The notes beneath the pieces were generated by a model that saw nothing but the letters and a program-made list of their open reading frames with translations, did not search any database and was not told the DNA's origin. The translations under genes and the position numbers were made by a program. Of a stretch of 10,504 bases of DNA, positions 1 through 10,504 are shown piece by piece (the stretch's first letter is position 1; the number at the start of each line of letters is the position of its first letter). Source of the DNA: an uncultured bacterium (GTDB lineage Bacteria > Abyssobacteria > SURF-5); contig CAZEBC010000143.1 in the NCBI GenBank assembly GCA_964510165.1, forward strand, positions 1 through 10,504. The letters are read 5' to 3'.

Positions 1-126
1 CTTCAACAGGAGATGCCCGAGTCTGTAAGCGTCTTCCACTGAAAGAATAGTCGCCTCTTCATGCTCTTTGACCCATTCAGACGCCGATTCTGAAGAACTG
101 AAGAAATGCACCTTGTCGCAAAAGGG
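1..126 (-). pseudogene. merB: C-terminal fragment of an organomercurial (alkylmercury) lyase MerB-like protein; 5' part missing, 3' end runs off the window
   Basis: My translation of the minus strand 126->1 gives PFCDKVHFFSSSESASEWVKEHEEATILSVEDAYRLGHLLLK. This matches the MerB C-terminal pattern (FCxxVHFFxS...W...H....ILSVxEAxxLG). The frame is closed upstream by TGA at 162-160 and has no ATG between there and the homologous part. Confidence 0.75.
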
Positions 127-438
127 GCCCTCGATCTCATCCTGACCGGCAGGGGCGTTTCAGGCGAGGAGCCTCTCCGGATGGGTCTTGCGAATCGGCT
201 GGCGCCCAAGAGCAAGGCCCTGGAGCATGCAATCCAGCTCGCTCGCGAGATCGCATCACGGCCCCAGGCAGCGTTGCGCAGCGATCGGCTCTCCTCTTAT
301 GAACAGTGGTCGCTCAGCCTTACCGACGCGCTCAGCGCCGAATGCCATCACGGCATGGCCACACTCAGGACCGGCCAGATGTTCTCCGGGCTCGACGATT
401 ACGCCTCCGGAGGCTGGAAGAAGGCTCCGCGGAAATAG
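127..438 (+). pseudogene. C-terminal fragment of a crotonase / enoyl-CoA hydratase-isomerase family protein (5'-truncated)
   Basis: ALDLILTGRGVSGEEPLRMGLANRLAP...AIQLAREIASRPQAALRSDRLSSYEQW is the typical crotonase C-terminal third. In-frame stops lie upstream (TGA 91-93 and 40-42), and the catalytic N-terminal two-thirds are absent. The ATG at 106 lies inside the antisense merB remnant. Confidence 0.8.
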
Positions 439-443
439 ACGAA

Positions 444-590
444 TCAGGTTCTCCGGATTTCAGAAGCGCAACGGTCAGACTTTACGAAACAGAAGTCTGA
501 GCAGGCGGGAGCGACTGAAGGTGCCATGATTATCAGCAGGACAAGTCCGATGTGAAGCATGAGACGCTTCGGGTACTCAGAGACCGGCAT
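444..590 (-). pseudogene. Possible short remnant of an exported protein (signal peptide followed by Cys-Ser-Asp-Phe)
   Basis: MPVSEYPKRLMLHIGLVLLIIMAPSVAPA|CSDFCF... has a basic n-region, a hydrophobic h-region and an AxA site. The ORF is only 48 aa long. Confidence 0.25.
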
Positions 591-880
591 TCCTTCGATC
601 CTGTAATACGCCCACCAACTGGGAAACGCGGGCGGGTTCTTTTTTCCAGATGAGCATGGTGACGAGCATGTTGCCCGTACGATCAAACGCGATATCGAGG
701 AACCTGGCCTGATAACCTGCGGCGGCTGAAGCTTGGCGAATACGGTCGCATCGCTTCCCGTCTCGCTTCTTCCCAATGAATCCTGCTCACACTCGTTTCC
801 TGCTCGAGCAACGTGATGGTAATGTCCGGCCGAGAAAGCGCTCCAATAAGGACCAGGATGACCGGCAGCATCGTCAAGCC

Positions 881-1594
881 TCATGCGGGAATCTTGGCGA
901 GCACGTTCTTCAGTTGAGTGAGAAGGCCGGGGTCAAGCCTTGTGTGAATCGTGTGGGAATACTCAAGCGTATAGTCGGGGGCCCGCGTGAGGAGGTCGAT
1001 CCTCACATCCTTTTGGCGAACGAGCCGGTTGAGCTCGAAGAGGTCGCCTCGCTCGAACAGGTAGAACTTGGTCTTGATCGTCTCCGCCGCCGCGCTCTGG
1101 CCGAAGCCCAGTTTGAACGCGATGGTCTGCGTGCCCATGTCGGGCTCGGCGGTGATCTCAACACCCTGCCCGTCGACGCCTCGCGCATCGTTCAGTTTGG
1201 CCATGAACACTACATTGTCGGAGGAATCGAGAGTGTGACAAAGGTCGCCGCTGGAGAAAAAGTTAACCATCCATTGAGGCAGCACGTAGTTCTCGCCGCC
1301 CTCCACAAGCAATTCCCGGTATTCATACGTCGGCATTGAGAGCGGCGTCGCCACCGGAACATCGGGTTCCATCTCCCGCACCTTTGAAACCTCAGCGACC
1401 ACGCGACCGCGTCGAGGTGTCTGTCCTTCGTCGTCAACGCGTCCCTCAGAGCGGGTCTTCTCAACGGCCTCGGCCCGGGCCTCCATCGCGGCGATGGTGG
1501 GCGTCTCAAGCTCGACCTTTGAAGCGTTGAACATATAGCACAACAGAACAAACGTGGCCACAACCAACAGTGAAAGCACGATAACAGAACCCAT
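881..1594 (-). CDS. Hypothetical protein with an N-terminal transmembrane anchor (237 aa)
   Basis: GGAGG RBS lies just upstream of the ATG at 1594 (minus strand cacGGAGGacaagATG). The protein has a hydrophobic N-terminus (VIVLSLLVVATFVLLCYMF), a charged linker and a globular-looking C-domain. It starts 54 bp downstream of the yihY-like stop on the same strand. Confidence 0.8.
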   Translation of the reverse strand: MGSVIVLSLLVVATFVLLCYMFNASKVELETPTIAAMEARAEAVEKTRSEGRVDDEGQTPRRGRVVAEVSKVREMEPDVPVATPLSMPTYEYRELLVEGGENYVLPQWMVNFFSSGDLCHTLDSSDNVVFMAKLNDARGVDGQGVEITAEPDMGTQTIAFKLGFGQSAAAETIKTKFYLFERGDLFELNRLVRQKDVRIDLLTRAPDYTLEYSHTIHTRLDPGLLTQLKNVLAKIPA

Positions 1595-1648
1595 CTTGTC
1601 CTCCGTGGTATGCGGTGCGTGTTACGCCTTGCGCCGAAAGTCCATCGT

Positions 1649-2947
1649 TCACGCCTTGCTCTGCTCGACCAGTTCCTGCATGCTGAGTCCGTCCAACGCC
1701 GAATCAAGCCCCGTCGCCACTTCCTCAAAAGCCTTCTTGAGCCGTCGCGAGATTGGGTCTTTGATGTCCACAGGCACGAGCATCTTGCTTCCCGTCGCCG
1801 CCTCGATCACTTCGCGAACGGTTATGTGAGATGGATGCCTCGCAGGAACGTATTCATTCTCCTCAGTAAACGTGATCAGATGCTTCTCGGACAGGCGGCC
1901 CAGGATATCTCCCACCACCTCGGCCGGAATCTTGATGCTGTCCAAAGCGTCCACGGTGCTCGTCTGTTGCTGCTCGGAATCGTTGAATCGTCTGACGATC
2001 TCGGCCATCGCGCGCACCGAGTAGAAGTCGAGATAGCGCACCGATTCGGCATAATCAGTCGTCACCTTTTCGCCATGGTATTGAACCGCGTACGCGACCT
2101 CTGTCCCGAACAGCACAATCAACCACGTCAAATAAACCCAAAGCAGGAACACGGGCACGGTGCCGAGAGACCCATAGACCTTGTCAAACGTCGCCATGTT
2201 CGTAATGTACCAGTTAAATCCGTTCTTCGCCATCTCCCACAACGTGCCACCCACCACCGCCCCGATAGCCGCAGCCCGAATGCGCACGTGCGTATAAGGC
2301 ACGAATTGATACATGAGCCAGAAAGCCGCCCACGTCAGCAGGTACCCGATGAACCTGAACCTCAGGGAGAAGACATCGGGACCCTGCGCAGCCAGTTTCG
2401 CGGCGATATAGAATGAAACAAAAACTAACAGCGGCGCCGCGGTGAGCACGGTCCAAAATGCCGTGAACTTGCTCAAAAACGGCCTGCGCTGTTTCGCATG
2501 CCATATCTCGTTGATTGTATGTTCGATGTTATTGAAAAGGAAGATCGCCGCGAGCAGGAGGGTCGTGACGCCGAATATGCCCAGCACCCCAACGTTCTCA
2601 ACATACTGAGTGAGATATTCCCGGACGATATCCGTGCGGGCAGGCACAAGGTTCCTGAACAGAAAATCCTGCACGCGTTCCTTTATGGCGCTGAACGCCT
2701 CCAGCTTGGTGAGCAGAAAGAAAAAGATGGCGCTGACAGGCACGAGCGCGAGCAGACTCGCAAACGCCAGCGCGCTCGCGCGAAGCACACACTTGTCGGC
2801 GAAGAACTCCTCGAATGCGCGAATGGCCACTCTGCCGGGATACAGCAGAATCTTCAGGTGCAGTGACGATTTCGAGATGTCGGCCTCACGAAATTGCTCG
2901 TAAAGCCCGGCGAGCCTATTGTGCCGTTTTGGGAACCTCTGCATCAT
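1649..2947 (-). CDS. YihY/virulence factor BrkB family inner-membrane protein with a C-terminal Rrf2-like winged helix-turn-helix (~432 aa)
   Basis: Family motifs: RASALAFASLLALVP, IEHTINEIW...RPFLSKFTAFW, MYQFVPYTHVRIRAAAIGAVVGG, VYGSLGTVPVFLLWVYLTWLIVLFGTEV. The C-terminal IPAEVVGDILGRLSEKHLI...YVPARHPSHITVREVIEA resembles the Rrf2 wHTH. The start is probably the ATG at 2947 or 2944; the track's 3244 start overlaps the divergent kinase. Confidence 0.9.
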   Translation of the reverse strand: MMQRFPKRHNRLAGLYEQFREADISKSSLHLKILLYPGRVAIRAFEEFFADKCVLRASALAFASLLALVPVSAIFFFLLTKLEAFSAIKERVQDFLFRNLVPARTDIVREYLTQYVENVGVLGIFGVTTLLLAAIFLFNNIEHTINEIWHAKQRRPFLSKFTAFWTVLTAAPLLVFVSFYIAAKLAAQGPDVFSLRFRFIGYLLTWAAFWLMYQFVPYTHVRIRAAAIGAVVGGTLWEMAKNGFNWYITNMATFDKVYGSLGTVPVFLLWVYLTWLIVLFGTEVAYAVQYHGEKVTTDYAESVRYLDFYSVRAMAEIVRRFNDSEQQQTSTVDALDSIKIPAEVVGDILGRLSEKHLITFTEENEYVPARHPSHITVREVIEAATGSKMLVPVDIKDPISRRLKKAFEEVATGLDSALDGLSMQELVEQSKA

Positions 2948-3228
2948 TACGTAATCCCAAGCATCATATGTCGTTGCTTGTTCCTCATGTCCGAATATAG
3001 CAGAGCGCAACTGGTTTGTCAATGCGGAGATGCAAAGTCTGCAAGAGGCACGGCACGCAGTTCCGCTGCCATATGCGTCTCCGAAACGCGCGGGCCGCGC
3101 ACCCGTGCACATCCCCTTGCGCCGCAGTTCCCGGTTTCGAATTGCGCTTCTAGCGTCTTCAAGCAGGCGAGACATACTAAAGCAATTAATAACGTCTCTT
3201 TTCGGCGCCATAAGATCGGCGGCATTCC

Positions 3229-4296
3229 ATGAAGACGGAATCAAAGGTCTTGGTCCTGGCAGTTGCCCTCGGCCTGTGCGTCGGCTTCGTTGACGCGCTC
3301 CTGGACTACCTCTTCTTCTACGACCTCCCCTTCCTCGACCTGCTTATCCTCGACGTGCCGCCGCATGAGATATACTTTCGTTCGCTCATCTTGGTCTCCA
3401 TGATCTCCATCGGGGCCATCGTCGGAAAGCTGCTTGCGAAATGCCGCCGCGTGGAACATGAACTGCGCGAGGCCCGCGAACATCTCGAGCGGCGGGTCGA
3501 GACGCGGACGGCTGAACTCGCCAGGTCCAGCGAACTCCTTAGACGTGAGATCGAGGAAAGAACCAGGACGGAACTCGAACTTCGCTCTTCCCAGGAAAAG
3601 CTCAGCGCGCTTTCTTCAACCCTCCTCTCCGCCCAGGAAAACGAGCGACAACGAATCTCGCTCGAACTCCATGACGAACTCGGCCAGTCGCTTGCGCTCC
3701 TTAAGCTGCGCCTGCGATCCATTGAACGAAAGCTCGACGCGGCGCGGCCGGAAATCAAGCAGGAGTGCGACGAGACAATCAATTCCCTCGATGAAATCAT
3801 TGAGAGCGTCCGCCGAATCTCTCACGACCTCTGCCCCTCCGTAATCGAAAGCCTCGGCCTGTGCGTCGCCCTCCGAAGCCTCATGAACGATTTCGCTAAA
3901 CATTTCGGCGTCAAGCTGACGCTCGACATGGAGCGCATCGAACATCTGTTCTCGCGCGAATCGCAAATCCTGATTTACCGAATCTTTCAGGAGGCCTTCA
4001 GCAACATCGGGAAGCACGCCCACGCGGAGAATGTCAGGGTTTCAATCAGGAAGGACGAACGCGCCATCATTATCCTGATCGAGGACGACGGAAAGGGATT
4101 CGAACCTGACATGATCAACTCCGGCAAACCCCGCCCAAGAGGAATGGGCCTCGCGGCCATGAAAGAAAGAGTGCGCATGCTCGGAGGGCAGATGACGATA
4201 ACCAGCCGTGACGGAGAGGGGACCCGCATACGCCTGACATTGCCGAGTCGCGTGAATCGAGAGTCCATTCCGCCCGGAATAGGTAATACTACCTAA
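3229..4296 (+). CDS. Membrane-bound sensor histidine kinase, HisKA_3 (NarX/UhpB/DegS-type) plus HATPase_c (355 aa)
   Basis: H-box ERQRISLELHDELGQSL, N-box IFQEAFSNIGKHAHA, G1 IEDDGKGF, G2 GMGLAAMKERVRMLGG. Two N-terminal hydrophobic segments and a coiled-coil linker (LERRVETRTAEL) precede these. Confidence 0.93.
   Translation: MKTESKVLVLAVALGLCVGFVDALLDYLFFYDLPFLDLLILDVPPHEIYFRSLILVSMISIGAIVGKLLAKCRRVEHELREAREHLERRVETRTAELARSSELLRREIEERTRTELELRSSQEKLSALSSTLLSAQENERQRISLELHDELGQSLALLKLRLRSIERKLDAARPEIKQECDETINSLDEIIESVRRISHDLCPSVIESLGLCVALRSLMNDFAKHFGVKLTLDMERIEHLFSRESQILIYRIFQEAFSNIGKHAHAENVRVSIRKDERAIIILIEDDGKGFEPDMINSGKPRPRGMGLAAMKERVRMLGGQMTITSRDGEGTRIRLTLPSRVNRESIPPGIGNTT
4280..4295. promoter_or_regulatory. 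Perfect inverted repeat TAGGTA-N4-TACCTA, candidate NarL/LuxR-family response-regulator box
   Basis: The palindrome is seen directly. Its half-site resembles the NarL-type TACYY motif. It lies about 26 bp upstream of the candidate -35 element. Confidence 0.4.
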
Positions 4297-4321
4297 TCTG
4301 CTCAATCCGGGCCAATTTCTC

Positions 4322-4351
4322 TTGCGCAGCTTATATCCAGTTCGGTATACT
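4322..4351 (+). promoter_or_regulatory. Candidate sigma70 promoter for the MCO/diheme operon
   Basis: TTGCGC (4322-4327), an 18-nt spacer and TATACT (4346-4351), in an AT-rich intergenic region. A second, perfect TATAAT lies at 4463-4468. Confidence 0.45.
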
Positions 4352-4622
4352 GATTATCAGAGTATTTGGAGCGTTTACCTCCAAAGGCGCGGCTTCGGTG
4401 AGATTGAACGACCAACACGCGGGGCTCTGATTCCTGAAAGGCAATAATCAATCCAAAATCAATATAATCGATAAAAGCGTAAAAGGGGAGTTGCTTGAAA
4501 GTGTATCATTTATTTACAGTAAGCGCCCTCCGCATTGGAAAATTGTCTGGGCGTGTGTGCGGGTGTACCCTTGGAGACCATACCCGGGGCATCGGTTTTT
4601 GCCATAACTTTTGGAGGACGTT

Positions 4623-6206
4623 ATGAAGAGGAGAGAATTCATCAAGATGGGGATGGGCGGACTTGCGTTCATAACGGCGGGCTCGGTCCTCGCCGGTCGG
4701 AAGGGCGGACTTGCCCACGCGGCCGCTCCGCTGCAACAGGGCGGCGTGACCTTGAACATCAACCTCACAATGGAAGAGGTCATGCTCGAGATGGTGGACA
4801 AGATTCCCGTCTACCATTGGGCCTATAGGGACCCGGTCAACGGGCTGCGCGTCCCGGGGTCGGTCATCGTGGCGGTGGAGGGCGACACCCTCAATTTCCG
4901 AGTGCGCAACCTCTTGCCCGGCGGAATCCATTCTTTCGCGGTTCCGGGCATCGCGGAGAGCCCCATTATCCCGAGGGGCGACACGGTATCTCTCAGTTTC
5001 GCAGCGCCCCCCGCTGGAACGTACATGTACTGCGATCCGCTTCAATTCGGCAAGAGCCGGGCGATGGGACTGCACGGGATGCTCATTGTTCTGCCCCGGG
5101 TCGGCAACACGCCGTACAGCAATCCGACGCCGGCGGTTCAACAACTCTTCAACCACCTTGGAACCTTGAACTGGTCTCCGGGGCGCGGTTCCGCGCATTA
5201 TCCGGGTCATCCCTGGGACCCCGACCGCTCGTTCATCTGGATTTTCCATACCGTCGATTCAGTCAAGCACGAGGCCGTCCGGCAGAACCCCGACTTGAGG
5301 GGCGAACCCTTCTTGGACGGCTATCGGCCCGACTATTTCCTCATCAGCGGCAAGAGCGGCTTCTTCCTGTCTCATGACGACCACATAGGTCCCCACGGAA
5401 ATGTCGGCCAGCCGGCCCTTATCCGCGCGATGAACGCAGGGCTGAACAACGCTTCTCCTCACATCCACGGCAACCACGTGTACATGCTTGCCGAGAACAA
5501 CGCGCTTGCGCAAACCCACTTGCCCCTTCCCCTGCCAGCGAACGGCCACATACACGAAAACGTGGTCCTGCTTGAGACGTGGACGATGAGGCCGGGTGAC
5601 CGGAAGGACCTCCTGCTGCCGTTCATGCTTCCGCCGGATATCCCCGTTGAGAGGGACGTGGATTTCACCTGGGCGCCGCTCTCGCTGGAGGAGAGAATCG
5701 GCAGAGGAGGCAGCGAAAAGGCGTGGCCTCCTATAGAGGAGCCGTTCCCGCTCGTGTATCCTATGCATGACCATGACGAAATCTCTCAAACTGCCGCGCA
5801 CGGCAACTATCCGCAAGGAGCAGTCCTCCACTGGCAAATTGACGGCGACATTGACATGGAGATCGTCGAGGACGTGTTCGGGGCCAACCGGAGGCAGGTC
5901 ACCCAGGTCGTGCCGGGCAAAGACGGCGTCATCCTGGTGGATGTCGCGGACGTGAACCTGGCGACCAGGACCCTGACCGTGACGGGCCGCTACTCCGGCC
6001 TGCGCGGCGACACGCTCACAATATTTGCCGGCTCGACACTTGACGGCCTGCAACTCGGACAGACAACGGTCACTCCCGACGGCACATGGGCATTCGTGCT
6101 GACGGTGAACCGGATACCGCCCGCTGCGCGGAACATGCGAACGATAAGCATACGAAACGAGAATACCGGCGCCACACGGCTGGGTGTTCGCTTCCAGATA
6201 GTTTAA
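4623..6206 (+). CDS. Tat-exported cupredoxin/multicopper-oxidase-like protein, 'subunit A' (527 aa): two cupredoxin domains plus a C-terminal Ig-like beta domain
   Basis: GGAGG at 4613-4617 precedes ATG 4623. Tat signal MKRREFIK...LAHA. MCO-fold motifs PGSVIVAVEGDTLNFRVRN and APPAGTYMY. Domain 2 has SPHIHGNH (5460-5477) and YPMHDH (5766-5774). Confidence 0.88.
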   Translation: MKRREFIKMGMGGLAFITAGSVLAGRKGGLAHAAAPLQQGGVTLNINLTMEEVMLEMVDKIPVYHWAYRDPVNGLRVPGSVIVAVEGDTLNFRVRNLLPGGIHSFAVPGIAESPIIPRGDTVSLSFAAPPAGTYMYCDPLQFGKSRAMGLHGMLIVLPRVGNTPYSNPTPAVQQLFNHLGTLNWSPGRGSAHYPGHPWDPDRSFIWIFHTVDSVKHEAVRQNPDLRGEPFLDGYRPDYFLISGKSGFFLSHDDHIGPHGNVGQPALIRAMNAGLNNASPHIHGNHVYMLAENNALAQTHLPLPLPANGHIHENVVLLETWTMRPGDRKDLLLPFMLPPDIPVERDVDFTWAPLSLEERIGRGGSEKAWPPIEEPFPLVYPMHDHDEISQTAAHGNYPQGAVLHWQIDGDIDMEIVEDVFGANRRQVTQVVPGKDGVILVDVADVNLATRTLTVTGRYSGLRGDTLTIFAGSTLDGLQLGQTTVTPDGTWAFVLTVNRIPPAARNMRTISIRNENTGATRLGVRFQIV

Positions 6207-6223
6207 GCAGAGGAGACACGAAC

Positions 6224-7528
6224 ATGGCGATAACTGACATAATCCCGCGAGATCTCAATCATCCTTTCGACCCGGCCAACCCGGGCGACCTCACCGAGTT
6301 CCGCCAGCACGGCTGCTCGATCCCGGCATGCACCGACCTGCAATTCCGAATTCCTCTATCGAGGATAGACCCGGAAGTGGTGGGCGGCGAGGACAGAGAC
6401 CGAATCCTGAACCTGGTCGTGCCCGAACTCGCCAGAATCCCCACGCCGGACGGTTCGGCTCTGGCGACGCCGGACCGCGTGGTCGCCGACAGGTTCTTCT
6501 TCCGACAGATGGCGCATGGTATTTTCGTTCCGGACGGCAAGAGCGGAACGGTGGAGGTCTGGAGCTTTGACGACACCGGTCCGAACCAGATTTTCGATGT
6601 TTGGCCGGCGCCGACCATCCGCGCCAGGGAAGGCGACATGGTACACACCATGTTGACTACCCGGCGCGGCACCCACACCATTCATCATCACGGCATCGAG
6701 CCGACCACGATGAACGACGGCGTGGGCCACATCTCCTTCGAGGTCGACGGCGGCGGTTACACCTATCAATGGCTTGCTCGCGAGGCCGGCACCTACTTCT
6801 ATCATTGCCACAAGAACACCGTGCTCCACTTTGAGATGGGAATGTACGGCTTCCTGATAATTGACCCGCCAGAGCCGGACGCTCCCTATGTTGACGGCGG
6901 TCCGGGCGCCATTCGAGTCGGAAACGACATCGTTCGATACGACCAGGAGAAGCTGTGGGCGGTCGATGAGCTTGATTTCCGGTGGCACAGCATCGTCGGC
7001 AAGCGAGTGGACTCGGGCGTCGAGTGCGATTTCTATCACGCGACCATAGACGGCATCCCGATACCGGGCACGAACATCCCGATGCCGGACGGGCCTGACC
7101 CGCTGATGCACCGCTTCGAACCGACCATCTTCACTATATCGGGCGTCGCGGTTGACCAGACACAGGGGCCGCCCCCATGGATGATGACCGACCCGCGCGT
7201 CGCTATCACGGCGCAAAGGGGCCAAAAAGTCGTCCTGCGGCTTCTGTGCGCGGGCTACACCACTCAGGTGTTCCGGTTCGGGCTGCCGTGCACACTTATC
7301 GAAGTGGATAACCGCACGCTCGGCTACGGTCCGCGCCAGCAGTATTCGCACCCGGAAGCGATACCGGCCAAACAGCCGTTCGAGATGACCACGGCCCGGA
7401 AAAAGGTGTTCCTGTTCGACACCACGGACATAGCGCCGAAAACCTATCCGATGCGGGTCGATTTCATAGACTGGGTCAATGGAAGGGTATGGGGAACCGT
7501 CATAGCTACGTTCACAGTGACCCCGTAA
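6224..7528 (+). CDS. Multicopper-oxidase-like protein, 'subunit B' (434 aa), with a complete type-1 Cu site in domain 1 and no signal peptide
   Basis: AGGAG RBS at 6211-6215 precedes ATG 6224, 17 bp after the previous stop. Motifs: [18 protein letters not shown] (6674-6694) and [22 protein letters not shown] (HCH at 6803-6811, H at 6827, M at 6842). Confidence 0.9.
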
Positions 7529-7569
7529 AGTCTTGGAGACGGGACGGTCTGCGTGCTGCCCCGCTATTT

Positions 7570-7612
7570 TCACCCCCCAACCCTCTCCCACTGGGAGAGG
7601 GCAGGGTGAGGG
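7570..7612. repeat. REP-like palindromic element (CCCTCTCCC-act-GGGAGAGGG with outer TCACCC/GGGTGA arms)
   Basis: A 9-bp perfect stem (7581-7589/7593-7601) plus outer pairing of TCACCC with GGGTGA. It resembles the widespread CCCTCACCCnnnCCCTCTCCC...GGGAGAGGG intergenic repeat type. Confidence 0.7.
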
Positions 7613-7661
7613 TTTGGATTGCTTTCTGCATTTCAGAGGAACAATGAAGGAGGAAGTGAAC

Positions 7662-10478
7662 ATGCGTGTGATGGCACGACAAAAGGCAAGACGCCCAGGG
7701 AATCTTGGAAGAAAATCCGTCCCGGCGGCATTAGCGCTCTCTCTAGCGCTTGTGGCCTTTTTCGCGGGAAGCGCGTGGGCGGTCACAATTCCGGTTCCGG
7801 AACCGGATGGTCTCGATGAATTCATCCGGGACAGGAACATGGCCATAGTGCTCGGAAAGGCGCTATATTGGGATATGCAGGTCGGAAGCGACGGCGTCAC
7901 AGCCTGCGCCTCATGCCATTTCCATGCCGGCGCCGACGCCCGCTTCCGCAACCAGATCAATCCGGGGCAGCTTGGCGGCGATAACACCTTTAATACGGCG
8001 CCGCCAAATGCCGCGCTCAAGTTCGATTTCTTCCCGCTCCACAAGCTCACGGACCCCAACGACGAGCATTCCCAGGTCATCTCTACCAGCGACGACGTGA
8101 TCTCCTCGCAGGGAGTGTTCCTTCACGATTTCGCGGGAGTCGTCCCCGGAAGCGCGACCGACCTGGGCACGGAGCGCCCAGATCCCGTGTTTAATGTCAA
8201 TGGAATCAACACAAGACGAGTCGAGCCCAGGAACACGCCGACCGTCATAAATGCGGTCTTCAACCTGGCCAACTTCTGGGATGGCCGCGCCAACACCATC
8301 TTCAACGGCGTCAACCCATTCGGCCCGGCCGACCTCACAAGCGGCGTGTACGTGGACCGGGGAACAGGTCTGGCGACAGAACTCGTCAGACTCAACAACT
8401 CCGCCCTCGCCTCCCAGGCCGTGGGGCCCCCGCTCAGCAACTTCGAGATGTCCTTTGGCGGGCGCACGTTCCCTGATATCGGCAAGAAAATGCTCTCGCT
8501 TCAGCCCCTCGCGAAACAGCTTGTCCATCCGCAGGACGGCTACCTCGGCCCTTACTCCAAGGCGACTCTTGACGCGAGAGGACGTGCGCGGGGAACGCCA
8601 GGAATTACGAAAAATTACAAGGGCCTCATAGCAGCCGCGTTCCAGCCCAGATACTGGGCCAACAACACCCAGATAGTCAGGATCACCGACGGGATACCCG
8701 AGGTTGTGCCCAAACCCGACCGCGCACTTGAGGCCAACGAGTTCACGCAGATGGAGATCAACTTCTCGCTCTTCTTCGGACTGTCCATTCAGCTTTACGA
8801 GGCGACGCTCGTCTCGAACGATTCGCCGTTCGATCGGTTCGCAGCGGGCGACCCCTCTGCGCTCACTCCCCAGCAGCAGCAGGGGTTTGAGATATTCCAG
8901 GGCCGCGGCAATTGCATCGTCTGTCACGCGGGCGCCGAGTTCACGCTTGCCACGGTGAATGACCTAGTGGGGCTGACTCCCGAAGCGGTCGCCCTGACCG
9001 CCAAGCTTGACGGCGGACAGGTCGTCCCGCCGGTCGCCACCGCCGCCAAGGGCCTGGCGGTGCTGACCCTCGATGCGCTCCGTACAAAGATCGTCTTCGA
9101 CCTGAGGACCGAGAATATCACGGACATAACATCCGCTCGCATCCATTCGGGTGTGCCGGGCCAGAATGGGCCAGCCATGTTCACATTGTCCGCGACCGGC
9201 TTTGTGGACCGGGCGACCGGCTCATTAACCGAGGCCAGTTTCACGCCCGTGCCGGGGATCCCAACTTTCGCGGACGCGCTCCAGGCGATGATCAAGGGCG
9301 AGACGCATCTGCTCGTGACCACTGCGGCGAGTCCTTCAGGCGAGATACGCGGACAAATCGAACAGGCCGTGTTCGTCATGGACGCCAGGCTTTCAAAATA
9401 CCAAGTGGTCCCCCCGACCACCAGCACCGCCATCGCCTCAGCTGAATTCATCAGCGAGCCTTTCACCGACCGGATCGATTTTGAGGTTTCCGTGACCAGG
9501 ATAAACACGGCGGAGGTCACCGCGGTCGATCTGCGCCTCGGCGCCGTCGGACAGAACGGGCCGGTCATCTTCAACCTGTTTGTCGTTCCCTTCAATCGCA
9601 ACGCGATAGAAGGAGTCCTGCGGCCGGAGCACCTCATCCCGGCGCCCGGCATATCAACCTTCGCGGAAGCCATTGACGCGATGTTTGCCGGCGAGACGTA
9701 TGTCGAGATTCGCACACAGGCGTTCCCTGAAGGTGAAATACGCGGCCAGGTATTTGCCGCTCCCGAACTGCTCCTCAACCCCATCGAACTCATGAACATG
9801 GCCGTCGGCAGGGCGTTCTATGACAACGGCTTCTACAACACGGGCATTCGATTGCCGGAACACGACATTGGCAGAGGCGGTAACGACCCATTCGGGCTTC
9901 CGCTCTCGTTCTCCAAACTGGCGGTGCTCAAGAGCGAGGGACTGCTGCCGCCCGAAATGGAGGGGTTTGTCCCCAACCTGCCTTCTGGCGTGACCGACCC
10001 TCCCAACCGCACCGCCGTCAACGCCGCGTTTAAGACGCCGGGCCTTCGCAATGTCGAACTGACGACCCCCTACTTCCACAACGGCGCATTTGGAACGCTC
10101 AGACAGGTAGTTGACTTCTATGCGCGCGGCGGAAACTTCTCCGATGAGAACATCGAGAACCTGGCGCCGCTCATCGCGCCCATCCCCGGAATGGATGAGG
10201 CCGCAAGGAGCGCGCTCGTATCCTTCCTGCTCTCCCTCACCGACCAACGAGTGAAGAACGAGTCGTTCCCGTTCGACCATCCGCAGTTGTTTGTGCCGAA
10301 CGGTCAGAAGGGAGACGAAAACCAGATACTCGGCGATTGCTCGAGTTTCAACCCGCTCGGCTTCAAACGCTGCGAGCGCATCATGGCCATACCCGCCGTC
10401 GGAGCGCAAGGCCGTTCCGCAGCCGGGTTCCCGCCGCTTCGGGCTCCGGTAGACCATTTTGACCCCAATTACAACTAG
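7662..10478 (+). CDS. Secreted diheme cytochrome c of the bCCP/MauG superfamily (938 aa) with two inserted CHRD domains
   Basis: AAGGAGG at 7647-7653 precedes ATG 7662. Sec-type signal ending ...AFFAGSAWA. Motifs: [13 protein letters not shown] (7905-7919), [20 protein letters not shown] (8913-8927), [19 protein letters not shown] and VVDFY. Confidence 0.92.
8994..9752 (+). other. Two tandem CHRD domains (about 8994-9359 and 9372-9752) inside the diheme protein
   Basis: Each repeat has AxL...QVVPP, GxxGQNGP and the CHRD C-terminal signature PxGEIRGQ[IV]. Confidence 0.85.
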
Positions 10479-10504
10479 CAGATTCAACCTTCACGGCGCG
10501 GACC

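Follow-up and report, generated by a model that had tools for sequence, protein, structure and literature searches.

How can two neighbouring genes give rise to a multicopper oxidase (MCO) when neither product carries a complete set of copper ligands? The question is raised by a stretch of DNA of 10,504 nucleotides (nt), hereafter the window, from an uncultured bacterium of the lineage Abyssobacteria, SURF-5 (GenBank assembly GCA_964510165.1, contig CAZEBC010000143.1, positions 1 to 10,504 of the forward strand). Two adjacent genes on this strand, at 4623..6206 and 6224..7528, encode the proteins called here subunit A and subunit B. Each of them resembles a protomer of the type-C two-domain MCOs, and each has kept a different half of the ligands of that class. 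The answer that we consider probable is an obligate heteromer: A and B would together make a four-copper oxidase and share a single cluster.

Subunit A (527 amino acids, aa) consists of two cupredoxin domains followed by a C-terminal extra domain, and a GGAGGA Shine-Dalgarno sequence lies just 5′ of the ATG of its gene. Subunit B (434 aa) has no signal peptide and consists of an N-terminal arm and two cupredoxin domains. Its protein start, MAITD, is located 17 nt past the stop codon of A, with GAGGAG 5′ of the ATG. A longer open reading frame (ORF) for B, which begins at 6086 and overlaps A, was rejected because 108 of 120 homologues start at the Met equivalent to that of MAITD. The translations of both genes match PF07732 (Cu-oxidase_3) above the cut-off, at residues 76-159 of A with 25.2 bits and at residues 126-217 of B with 48.7 bits. 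The two proteins are paralogues, as hhalign places A 59-277 over B 106-348 with a probability of 99.1% and an E value of 1.5e-18.

In type-C two-domain oxidases, the copper ligands are supplied by HxH and type-1 motifs. Domain 1 of A has lost both of its His pairs, as the sequence-only reading of the window had already proposed: the stretches IHSFAVPG at residue 102 and GTYMYCDP at residue 132 contain no HxH. In the profile alignment to the solved oxidases 2zwn and 3g5w, the segment of A written as eeHaFaipg falls under HTIHWHG and the segment YlYlDp under WYHCH, and it is because these stretches occupy the places of the two motifs without their His residues that the domain-1 ligands are regarded as lost in A. 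Domain 2 of A, in agreement with the same reading, keeps its two HxH pairs at the positions quoted there. The first, H280-I-H282-G-N-H285 (5460..5477, + strand), lies under HAMHSHG of 2zwn, and the second, H382-D-H384-D-E386 (5766..5783, + strand), lies under FHDHVD of 2zwn, with its HDH core matched; E386 of this motif is a conserved Glu.

Subunit B is the mirror image. The motif H151-T-I-H154-H-H156-G of its domain 1 (6674..6694, + strand) comprises a type-1 His and the first HxH pair and is aligned under HTIHWHG of 2zwn, 3g5w, and 9cck. It is followed by H194-C195-H196...H202...M207 (6803..6844, + strand), in which the second HxH pair flanks the type-1 Cys and a type-1 His and the axial Met come next, so that the domain stands under the full HTIHWHG...YHCH..H..M set of the three structures. 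Both motifs were found exactly where the earlier reading had put them. The type-1 ligands are complete in B (H151, C195, H202, and axial M207) and A has none. In domain 2 of B, neither an 11-residue stretch at residue 343 nor YPMRVDF at residue 408 has an HxH. The hhalign comparison of A with B sets the AGYTTQ stretch of B under NAGLNNA of A, which directly precedes the SPHIHGNH motif of A. The claim that domain 2 of B is devoid of His motifs stood as far as HxH pairs are concerned; the accompanying assignment of YPMRVDF as the equivalent of the second domain-2 motif was confirmed by none of the alignments made.

The candidates for the ligands of a trinuclear cluster are H280/H282 and H382/H384 of A together with H154/H156 and H194/H196 of B. 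These eight His residues in four HxH motifs are reached only by A and B jointly, since neither chain alone has more than four. A type-C protomer carries both ligand sets on each chain; A is without the domain-1 set and B without the domain-2 set, and A and B are not members of type C because each chain lacks one ligand half. Given that the two are paralogous and have lost opposite halves, complementary loss after duplication is indicated. The arrangement expected for the pair has a parallel in the type-C protein 9CCK: passages of its description report that the trinuclear site is built at the interface of two protomers and that Cys-His diads join the type-1 copper to it (PMC11761707).

The pattern of the window is shared by its homologues to a degree far above chance. 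Conservation was counted over 120 homologues for each protein, the proteins of the window included, and the set for A also contains fused forms, which are described below. In A, H280, H282, H285, H382, and H384 are each present in 120/120 homologues and E386 in 118/120. In B, the same 120/120 is found for H151, H154, H156, H194, C195, H196, and H202, and position 207 is Met in 116 and Leu in 4. When ORFs from species-genome loci are considered, the ligand set is whole in 80 of 81 for A, the exception having Gln at 382, and in 76 of 77 for B, the exception having Tyr at 156. At the axial position of B (residue 207, 6842-6844), which is Met here, Met was observed in 40 and Leu in 37 of the 77 genome ORFs. 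This near-even split suggests subgroups with differing type-1 potentials.

If A and B depend on each other, their genes should travel together, and this is what the genome surveys found. In the A-centred survey of a species-genome collection, 455 places encode a relative of A, and 80 loci were kept. B lies directly downstream on the same strand at 76 of the 80 loci and is fused to A at one more (L030, a single 854-aa ORF); at the remaining three, the contig stops 0, 111, or 568 bp past A. B is next to A or fused with it in all 77 evaluable loci, and none is without B. Among the 76, B is split into two ORFs once and a few B genes are cut by the contig end. The B-centred survey was carried out on metagenome contigs, where 476 places encode a relative of B, again with 80 loci kept. 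A was found directly upstream by script at 59 loci and, reading the coordinates, at 7 more in which the called B ORF is over-extended into A; one locus is fused (L145), and 13 have less than 400 bp upstream, three of these showing an edge fragment of A. A is therefore upstream of B or fused to it in 67/67 evaluable loci. A whole-genome survey of 121 genomes of the order around Geomobilimonas luticola, with a threshold of E <= 1e-40 for B, matched A in 13 genomes (14 places) and B in 11 genomes (12 places), and all 12 B places are just downstream of an A place. The co-occurrence as neighbours that the first reading called for is borne out, and homologues commonly occurring without their partner, which that reading named as evidence against itself, were not seen, no evaluable A-centred or B-centred locus lacking the partner.

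In the genome of the window, which is 97% complete, A followed by B occurs three times, each time on a different contig. The ligand pattern recurs in the second of these pairs. The third (contig C239) has a larger B (503-aa ORF), and its A gene has a masked or unknown stretch at the position of the second His pair. PF07732 is found in this genome in the six genes of the three pairs and in one gene on another contig. In the order around G. luticola, a divergent subgroup was also observed (G049, G051, G055, G086, G093, G099, and also G040 and G070), in which an A-like gene is followed downstream by an open frame of ~660-790 aa; this partner frame matches B domain 1 only.

Natural fusions join the two halves in one chain. 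Nine full-length fused proteins of 713-837 aa and one partial one were found, with an A part reaching to about residue 404-416, a B part starting from about residue 56-83, and the Tat-type (twin-arginine translocation) N-terminus of A retained. They have HxH at exactly the four expected places, half of them in the second domain and half in the third; in several fusions, a single additional HxH occurs elsewhere. In the alignment of fusions with A and B, a MAFFT version that placed B on the A half (~22% identity) was dropped, and the version with the B rows at 43-61% was used. The fusions are rare, as 4 fused or partly fused forms were found among the best 150 of 3160 cluster representatives retrieved with a fused query, of which 725 are at E <= 1e-10 and 227 at E <= 1e-30.

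The family as a whole comprises hundreds of sequence clusters over many phyla, and its carriers include Desulfuromonadales, Chloroflexi, Nitrospirae, anammox Planctomycetes, Actinomycetota, and Alphaproteobacteria. In the phylum of the window's organism, a match to A is present in 4 of the 11 species genomes of the collection, too few for co-occurrence. The occurrence across many other phyla set against these 4/11 in the host phylum hints at horizontal spread. An unusual expansion was noticed in Skermanella aerolata (G013, the genome of locus L092), which has seven B-type genes, one with an in-frame TGA.

This distribution bears on what the complex would do. The family is found in genomes of anaerobes, of anammox bacteria, and of Nitrospirae, and it could be supposed that the A-B complex forms but reduces no O2, its eight-His site holding fewer coppers or another metal and serving electron transfer or, for example, N-oxide chemistry. 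In the same direction, the nearest solved relative of B domain 1, Nmar_1354 (9CCK), oxidises hydroxylamine, according to passages of its description, where it is nonetheless said to reduce O2 at its cluster (PMC11761707). The full set of canonical ligands for a type-1 site plus a trinuclear site does not vary among the homologues, and Glu386 beside the second HxH of A is conserved as well, both of which speak for an oxidase. We consider a complex that does not reduce O2 improbable.

The assembly was then approached by structure prediction. The complex was modelled from A residues 35-527 (95-row alignment) and B (118-row alignment); it obtained scores of 0.94, 0.94, and 0.96, the best control reaching 0.00. 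Of 80 solved complexes, 58 reach that mark, as do 2 of 110 mismatched pairs, a calibration that is rough here because custom alignments were supplied. The three runs have at least 87% of contacts in common, a partner pLDDT (predicted local distance difference test) of at least 89, and ~330 contacts. The modelled interface comprises residues 280, 282-285, and 384-387 of A and residues 154, 156-163, 198-201, and 203-204 of B, together with B 3, 5-13, 15...83-87. The pairs with low predicted error include A G283-B E159, which puts the two HxHG motifs face to face in the model. The joint modelling of A and B, suggested as a check by the sequence-only reading, thus brings the domain-2 motifs of A against the domain-1 motifs of B. 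The N-terminal arm of B (residues 1-87; 6224..6484, + strand), in which M1, I7, and R9 are conserved and which is mostly missing from fused forms, is modelled as wrapping A.

A fused homologue, P0088, was modelled as a single chain (37-row alignment; pLDDT 88.6, predicted template modelling score, pTM, 0.88). Its best whole-chain Foldseek matches are MnxG (9bxa_A, E 1.2e-28, query-normalised template modelling score, TMq, 0.52) and ceruloplasmins (TMq 0.50), as against a TMq of merely 0.26-0.29 for three-domain oxidases. Superposition of the fused model on two-domain oxidases and ceruloplasmin gives Z values of 17-21. Residues 41-794 superpose on residues 1-698 of human ceruloplasmin (4enz) with Z 21.2 and a root mean square deviation (rmsd) of 4.1 Å over 517 residues; residues 1-698 are what we take to be the first four domains of ceruloplasmin. 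The N half superposes on 3g5w (Z 19.3, rmsd 2.5 Å, 280 residues) and the C half on the small laccase 7pfr_C (Z 18.2). In the models, the four domains of A-B are laid out like four consecutive domains of a six-domain ring, which is the same layout as that of a pair of adjacent protomers in a trimeric two-domain oxidase.

The superposition on only four ceruloplasmin domains leads to the suggestion that the enzyme works as a closed ring of six domains, for which A and B would need a third component of two-domain size, namely, another copy of one of the two subunits, a protein unrelated to them, or a third paralogue without ligands. The window itself encodes no third paralogue, and no ligand-free one was found in the 80 A-centred loci (hmmsearch, E <= 1e-5), where the sole extras are A-type or B-type copies (L047, L090). 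The count of PF07732 genes in the genome of the window, three A-B pairs and one gene elsewhere, leaves little room for it; the single-chain fusions L030 and L145 have no adjoining third cupredoxin gene, and the two-chain model is already confident with its ~330 contacts. A closed ring with a third partner is accordingly regarded as unlikely, though somewhat less so than a complex that reduces no O2.

The N-termini of the two proteins provide a further argument for a complex, one that the sequence-only reading had not used. A starts with MKRREFIK, followed by a hydrophobic stretch and AHA, which is a predicted Tat signal peptide (4623..4724, + strand). R3, R4, and F6, which belong to the Tat consensus motif, occur in 113, 113, and 110 of 120 homologues. 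The RR motif is present in 111/120 homologues of A versus 0/120 of B, and a hydrophobic N-terminal stretch in 99/120 versus 5/120. The N-terminus of B is conserved from residue 1 and is part of the modelled interface. With the signal on A only, the folded complex would most likely be exported together, by the so-called hitch-hiking, and co-export as the simplest reading argues in turn for an obligate complex. In [NiFe] hydrogenase, the subunit without a signal is exported within the folded complex on the Tat signal of its partner. The likeness of A-B to such heteromers, formed by small and large subunits, is the twin-arginine signal on one subunit, read here from the genes. No description of Tat hitch-hiking of MCOs was found in the literature searched.

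The same evidence bears on the possibility that A and B are separate, co-regulated copper proteins, for example, B a homotrimeric protein like nitrite reductase with type-1 and partial type-2 sites and A another metal binder. In sequence, domain 1 of B is similar both to nitrite reductases and to oxidases, and a conserved His/Asp/His trio is found in A domain 1. The copper nitrite reductases NirK (3wi9, 5zl1) do have two-domain cupredoxin protomers with the catalytic copper between protomers, and they match domain 1 of both A and B in sequence. NirK is a homotrimer with a three-His type-2 site, in contrast to the eight His residues in four HxH motifs of the A-B pair, which is the oxidase pattern, and the TIGR02376 (NirK) scores of A (29.4 bits) and B (35.9 bits) are far from the cut-off of 296.3. 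That two independent proteins are at work is very improbable: B has no export signal and A has one, the pairing is strict from the side of A and from that of B, the fusions retain both halves, the complex model passes its controls, and eight His residues that would have no purpose apart are invariant.

The proposed mechanism of the heteromeric oxidase can be outlined as follows. A and B would descend from a type-C two-domain MCO by duplication and complementary ligand loss and would assemble side by side, like adjacent protomers of a two-domain oxidase trimer. Domain 2 of A (H280, H282, H382, and H384) and domain 1 of B (H154, H156, H194, and H196) would then form one trinuclear cluster at their interface, to which the type-1 site of B (H151, C195, H202, and M207) would be wired via the H-C-H triad. 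Substrate electrons would enter at the type-1 copper and O2 would be reduced to water at the cluster, in a complex exported in folded form on the Tat signal of A. The central claim of the sequence-only reading, that neither protein can build the cluster alone and that A domain 2 and B domain 1 supply eight His residues beside the type-1 site of B, is supported in silico. The sequences show directly the ligand split and its conservation, the pairing of the genes, their natural fusions, and their paralogy; the interface and the layout of the four domains come from models, and copper binding, O2 reduction, joint export, and the obligate character of the complex are inferences. The electron donor might be a periplasmic cytochrome c or a reduced metal ion, which is a guess held with low confidence.

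Several points weigh against this reading. Copper binding and oxidase activity are, for every member of the family, predicted. Domain 1 of B alone has two His residues per motif, enough for a type-2 site of the nitrite-reductase type, so that an activity of B independent of A is conceivable. In the survey of the order around G. luticola, two A places (G040, G070) are without B at E <= 1e-40; they belong to the divergent subgroup mentioned above, whose B-like partners score near the threshold. The geometry of the modelled cluster is given by a contact list only, in which 5 of the 8 cluster His residues (A 280, 282, and 384; B 154 and 156) touch the partner; the remaining three (A 382, B 194, and B 196) are absent from the list, and each is two residues away from one that is on it. 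The pass of the complex model may partly mirror the likeness of A and B to homotrimeric two-domain oxidases and nitrite reductases, as solved homotrimers of these relatives exist. The four domains are two-thirds of the six-domain ring of ceruloplasmin and of two-domain oxidase trimers, and the real assembly may need something more. Finally, the homologue search gave 139 sequences with A and 1454 with B, numbers that do not allow the sizes of the two families to be compared, since the homologues of A were taken from the best 8000 candidates.

To our knowledge, the O2-reducing cluster of MCOs has always been described within one chain or between identical chains. The type-C two-domain oxidases are the closest relatives of A and B and likely their ancestors. 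The blue copper oxidase of Nitrosomonas europaea (3g5w), the metagenomic mgLAC (2zwn), the oxidase of Arthrobacter (3gdc), and that of Nitrosopumilus (Nmar_1354, 9cck) have the same two-cupredoxin fold per subunit, a domain-1 set HTIHxHG...YHCH..H..M like that of B, and domain-2 HxH pairs like those of A, and their cluster is built where domain 1 of a chain meets domain 2 of its neighbour, as is modelled for A-B. They are homotrimers with both halves on each chain and three clusters, whereas A and B have one half each and one cluster is expected per pair; the export signal on one chain only also sets A-B apart from them.

In six-domain MCOs, a single inter-domain interface has retained the trinuclear cluster, the remaining sites being degenerate. 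The six-domain fold (ceruloplasmin 4enz and 5n0k; MnxG 9bxa; coagulation factors V and VIII) is a pseudo-symmetric cupredoxin array and the best match to the whole fused model. It consists of one chain closed into a ring, with the cluster between its first and its last domain, whereas A-B has four domains on two chains, or on one in the rare fusions, and so differs from the ceruloplasmin type. Oxidases made of unlike polypeptides are represented by the Mnx complex of Bacillus, in which MnxG is joined by MnxE/F, and by laccase-like enzymes of fungi that have a small subunit of the POXA3 type (PMC10443355). In these complexes all copper ligands are on the oxidase subunit and the partners are small and unrelated, whereas in A-B the ligands are divided between paralogues. 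Two further candidates were dismissed as described matches: the Nitrospina oxidase is MnxG-like and unrelated, and Brocadia BpMHAO is a different protein, a type-B two-domain oxidase fused to hydroxylamine oxidoreductase that has all ligands and is modelled as a homotrimer.

A full-text literature search, with most subscription journals outside its coverage, did not reveal any cluster described as split over two subunits, in line with the earlier remark that the architecture was not known to be characterised. A cluster formed solely between two different gene products would be a new quaternary architecture for textbook enzymes. A-B would be a natural example of complementary degeneration after duplication, and it may represent an extant link between the trimers of two domains and the oxidases of six. 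The label multicopper oxidase domain-containing protein, given to each gene separately, masks the dependence of one on the other, and expression of a single gene would be expected to fail. With this pair, the co-export of a copper enzyme by Tat could also be tested directly.

Domain 1 of A deserves a separate comment. Its vestigial copper region (4929..5075, + strand) has lost the HxH pairs and the type-1 Cys, His, and Met. Judged by conservation, it is not ligand-free, as it retains a conserved trio of His103 (4929-4931; 117/120), Asp138 (5034-5036; 120/120), and His151 (5073-5075; 109/120). In the profile alignments, D138 falls in the column of the type-1 Cys and H151 adjoins the column of the axial ligand; two of the alignments disagree over which His of B pairs with H103. 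In 9 of the 81 A genome ORFs, the H103/D138/H151 pattern is replaced by R103, a His at 137, and Glu or Asp at 138. The trio may have been remodelled into a mononuclear site for a metal or a substrate. A more ambitious proposal, which we regard as speculative and rather doubtful as a whole, is that A-B represents a widespread and undescribed class of obligate heteromeric enzymes with a single cluster at a hetero-interface, an open four-domain array like that of ceruloplasmin, Tat hitch-hiking, and a domain 1 of A rebuilt as a mononuclear metal or substrate site (His103, Asp138, His151) feeding or regulating the enzyme, perhaps working with the neighbouring di-haem peroxidase as a periplasmic O2- and H2O2-reducing module in bacteria of low-oxygen habitats.

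Variation was also observed at residue 383 of A (5769-5771), between the two residues of the second His pair, which is Cys in 66/120 homologues, forming an H-C-H triad, and Asp in 39/120, including the protein of the window. A second type-1 site in A domain 2 was considered for the H-C-H forms and rejected, as there is no conserved upstream type-1 His and no conserved downstream His or Met. The Cys may have been left over from an ancestral protein in which each domain had a type-1 site. The C-terminal extra domain of A (residues 420-527; 5880..6203, + strand) is limited to the long-A subgroup and missing from fused forms; a weak match to a repeat adhesin at residues 445-500 is under the cut-off.

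Among the neighbours of the pair, the gene directly 3′ encodes a secreted protein like di-haem cytochrome c peroxidase (7644..10478, + strand; start at 7644, 7662, or 7671), with PF03150 and two PF07452 matches. The two PF07452 matches are CHRD (chordin-type) domains inserted between the haem-binding halves. Its best solved relatives are bacterial di-haem peroxidases (2c1u, 4.5e-23, versus 7e-07 for MauG). A CCP_MauG gene lies directly 3′ of B at 8 of 16 evaluable long-A loci, with a ninth (L014) recognised by eye, and at only 2 of the 49 short-A loci that could be evaluated is a di-haem peroxidase gene 3′ of B. As it accompanies only part of the family, the peroxidase is not a fixed part of the enzyme. 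A role of the di-haem protein as a MauG-type maturase of A or B is not favoured, on the same grounds and because it is nearer to ordinary peroxidases. In the window, A-B and the neighbouring peroxidase might constitute a periplasmic module disposing of O2 and H2O2, a guess made with low confidence. CHRD/Ig-like proteins adjoin A-B pairs at other loci as well, such as L014 (5906-7945).

Upstream of A, a sensor histidine kinase of the HisKA_3 type is encoded at 3229..4296 (+ strand; PF07730, PF02518), and a related cluster of kinase and regulator genes is present at 26 of the 80 loci. Further upstream, an ORF of 531 aa on the minus strand (1649-3244) has a membrane domain of the BrkB/YihY type (PF03631, 4.4e-55) and a weak C-terminal match to Rrf2-like regulators, under the cut-off. 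A scan for promoters and terminators was uninformative, its counts being at or under the shuffled expectation. Outside the long-A subgroup, a gene for the copper chaperone SCO1/SenC is found directly 3′ of B at 10 of 49 evaluable short-A loci, a context that favours a copper enzyme. In Alphaproteobacteria, SCO1/SenC was observed directly after B at loci L068, L078-L081, L083-L085, L087, L089, L092, and L093, and a secretin gene is close by in 7 loci.

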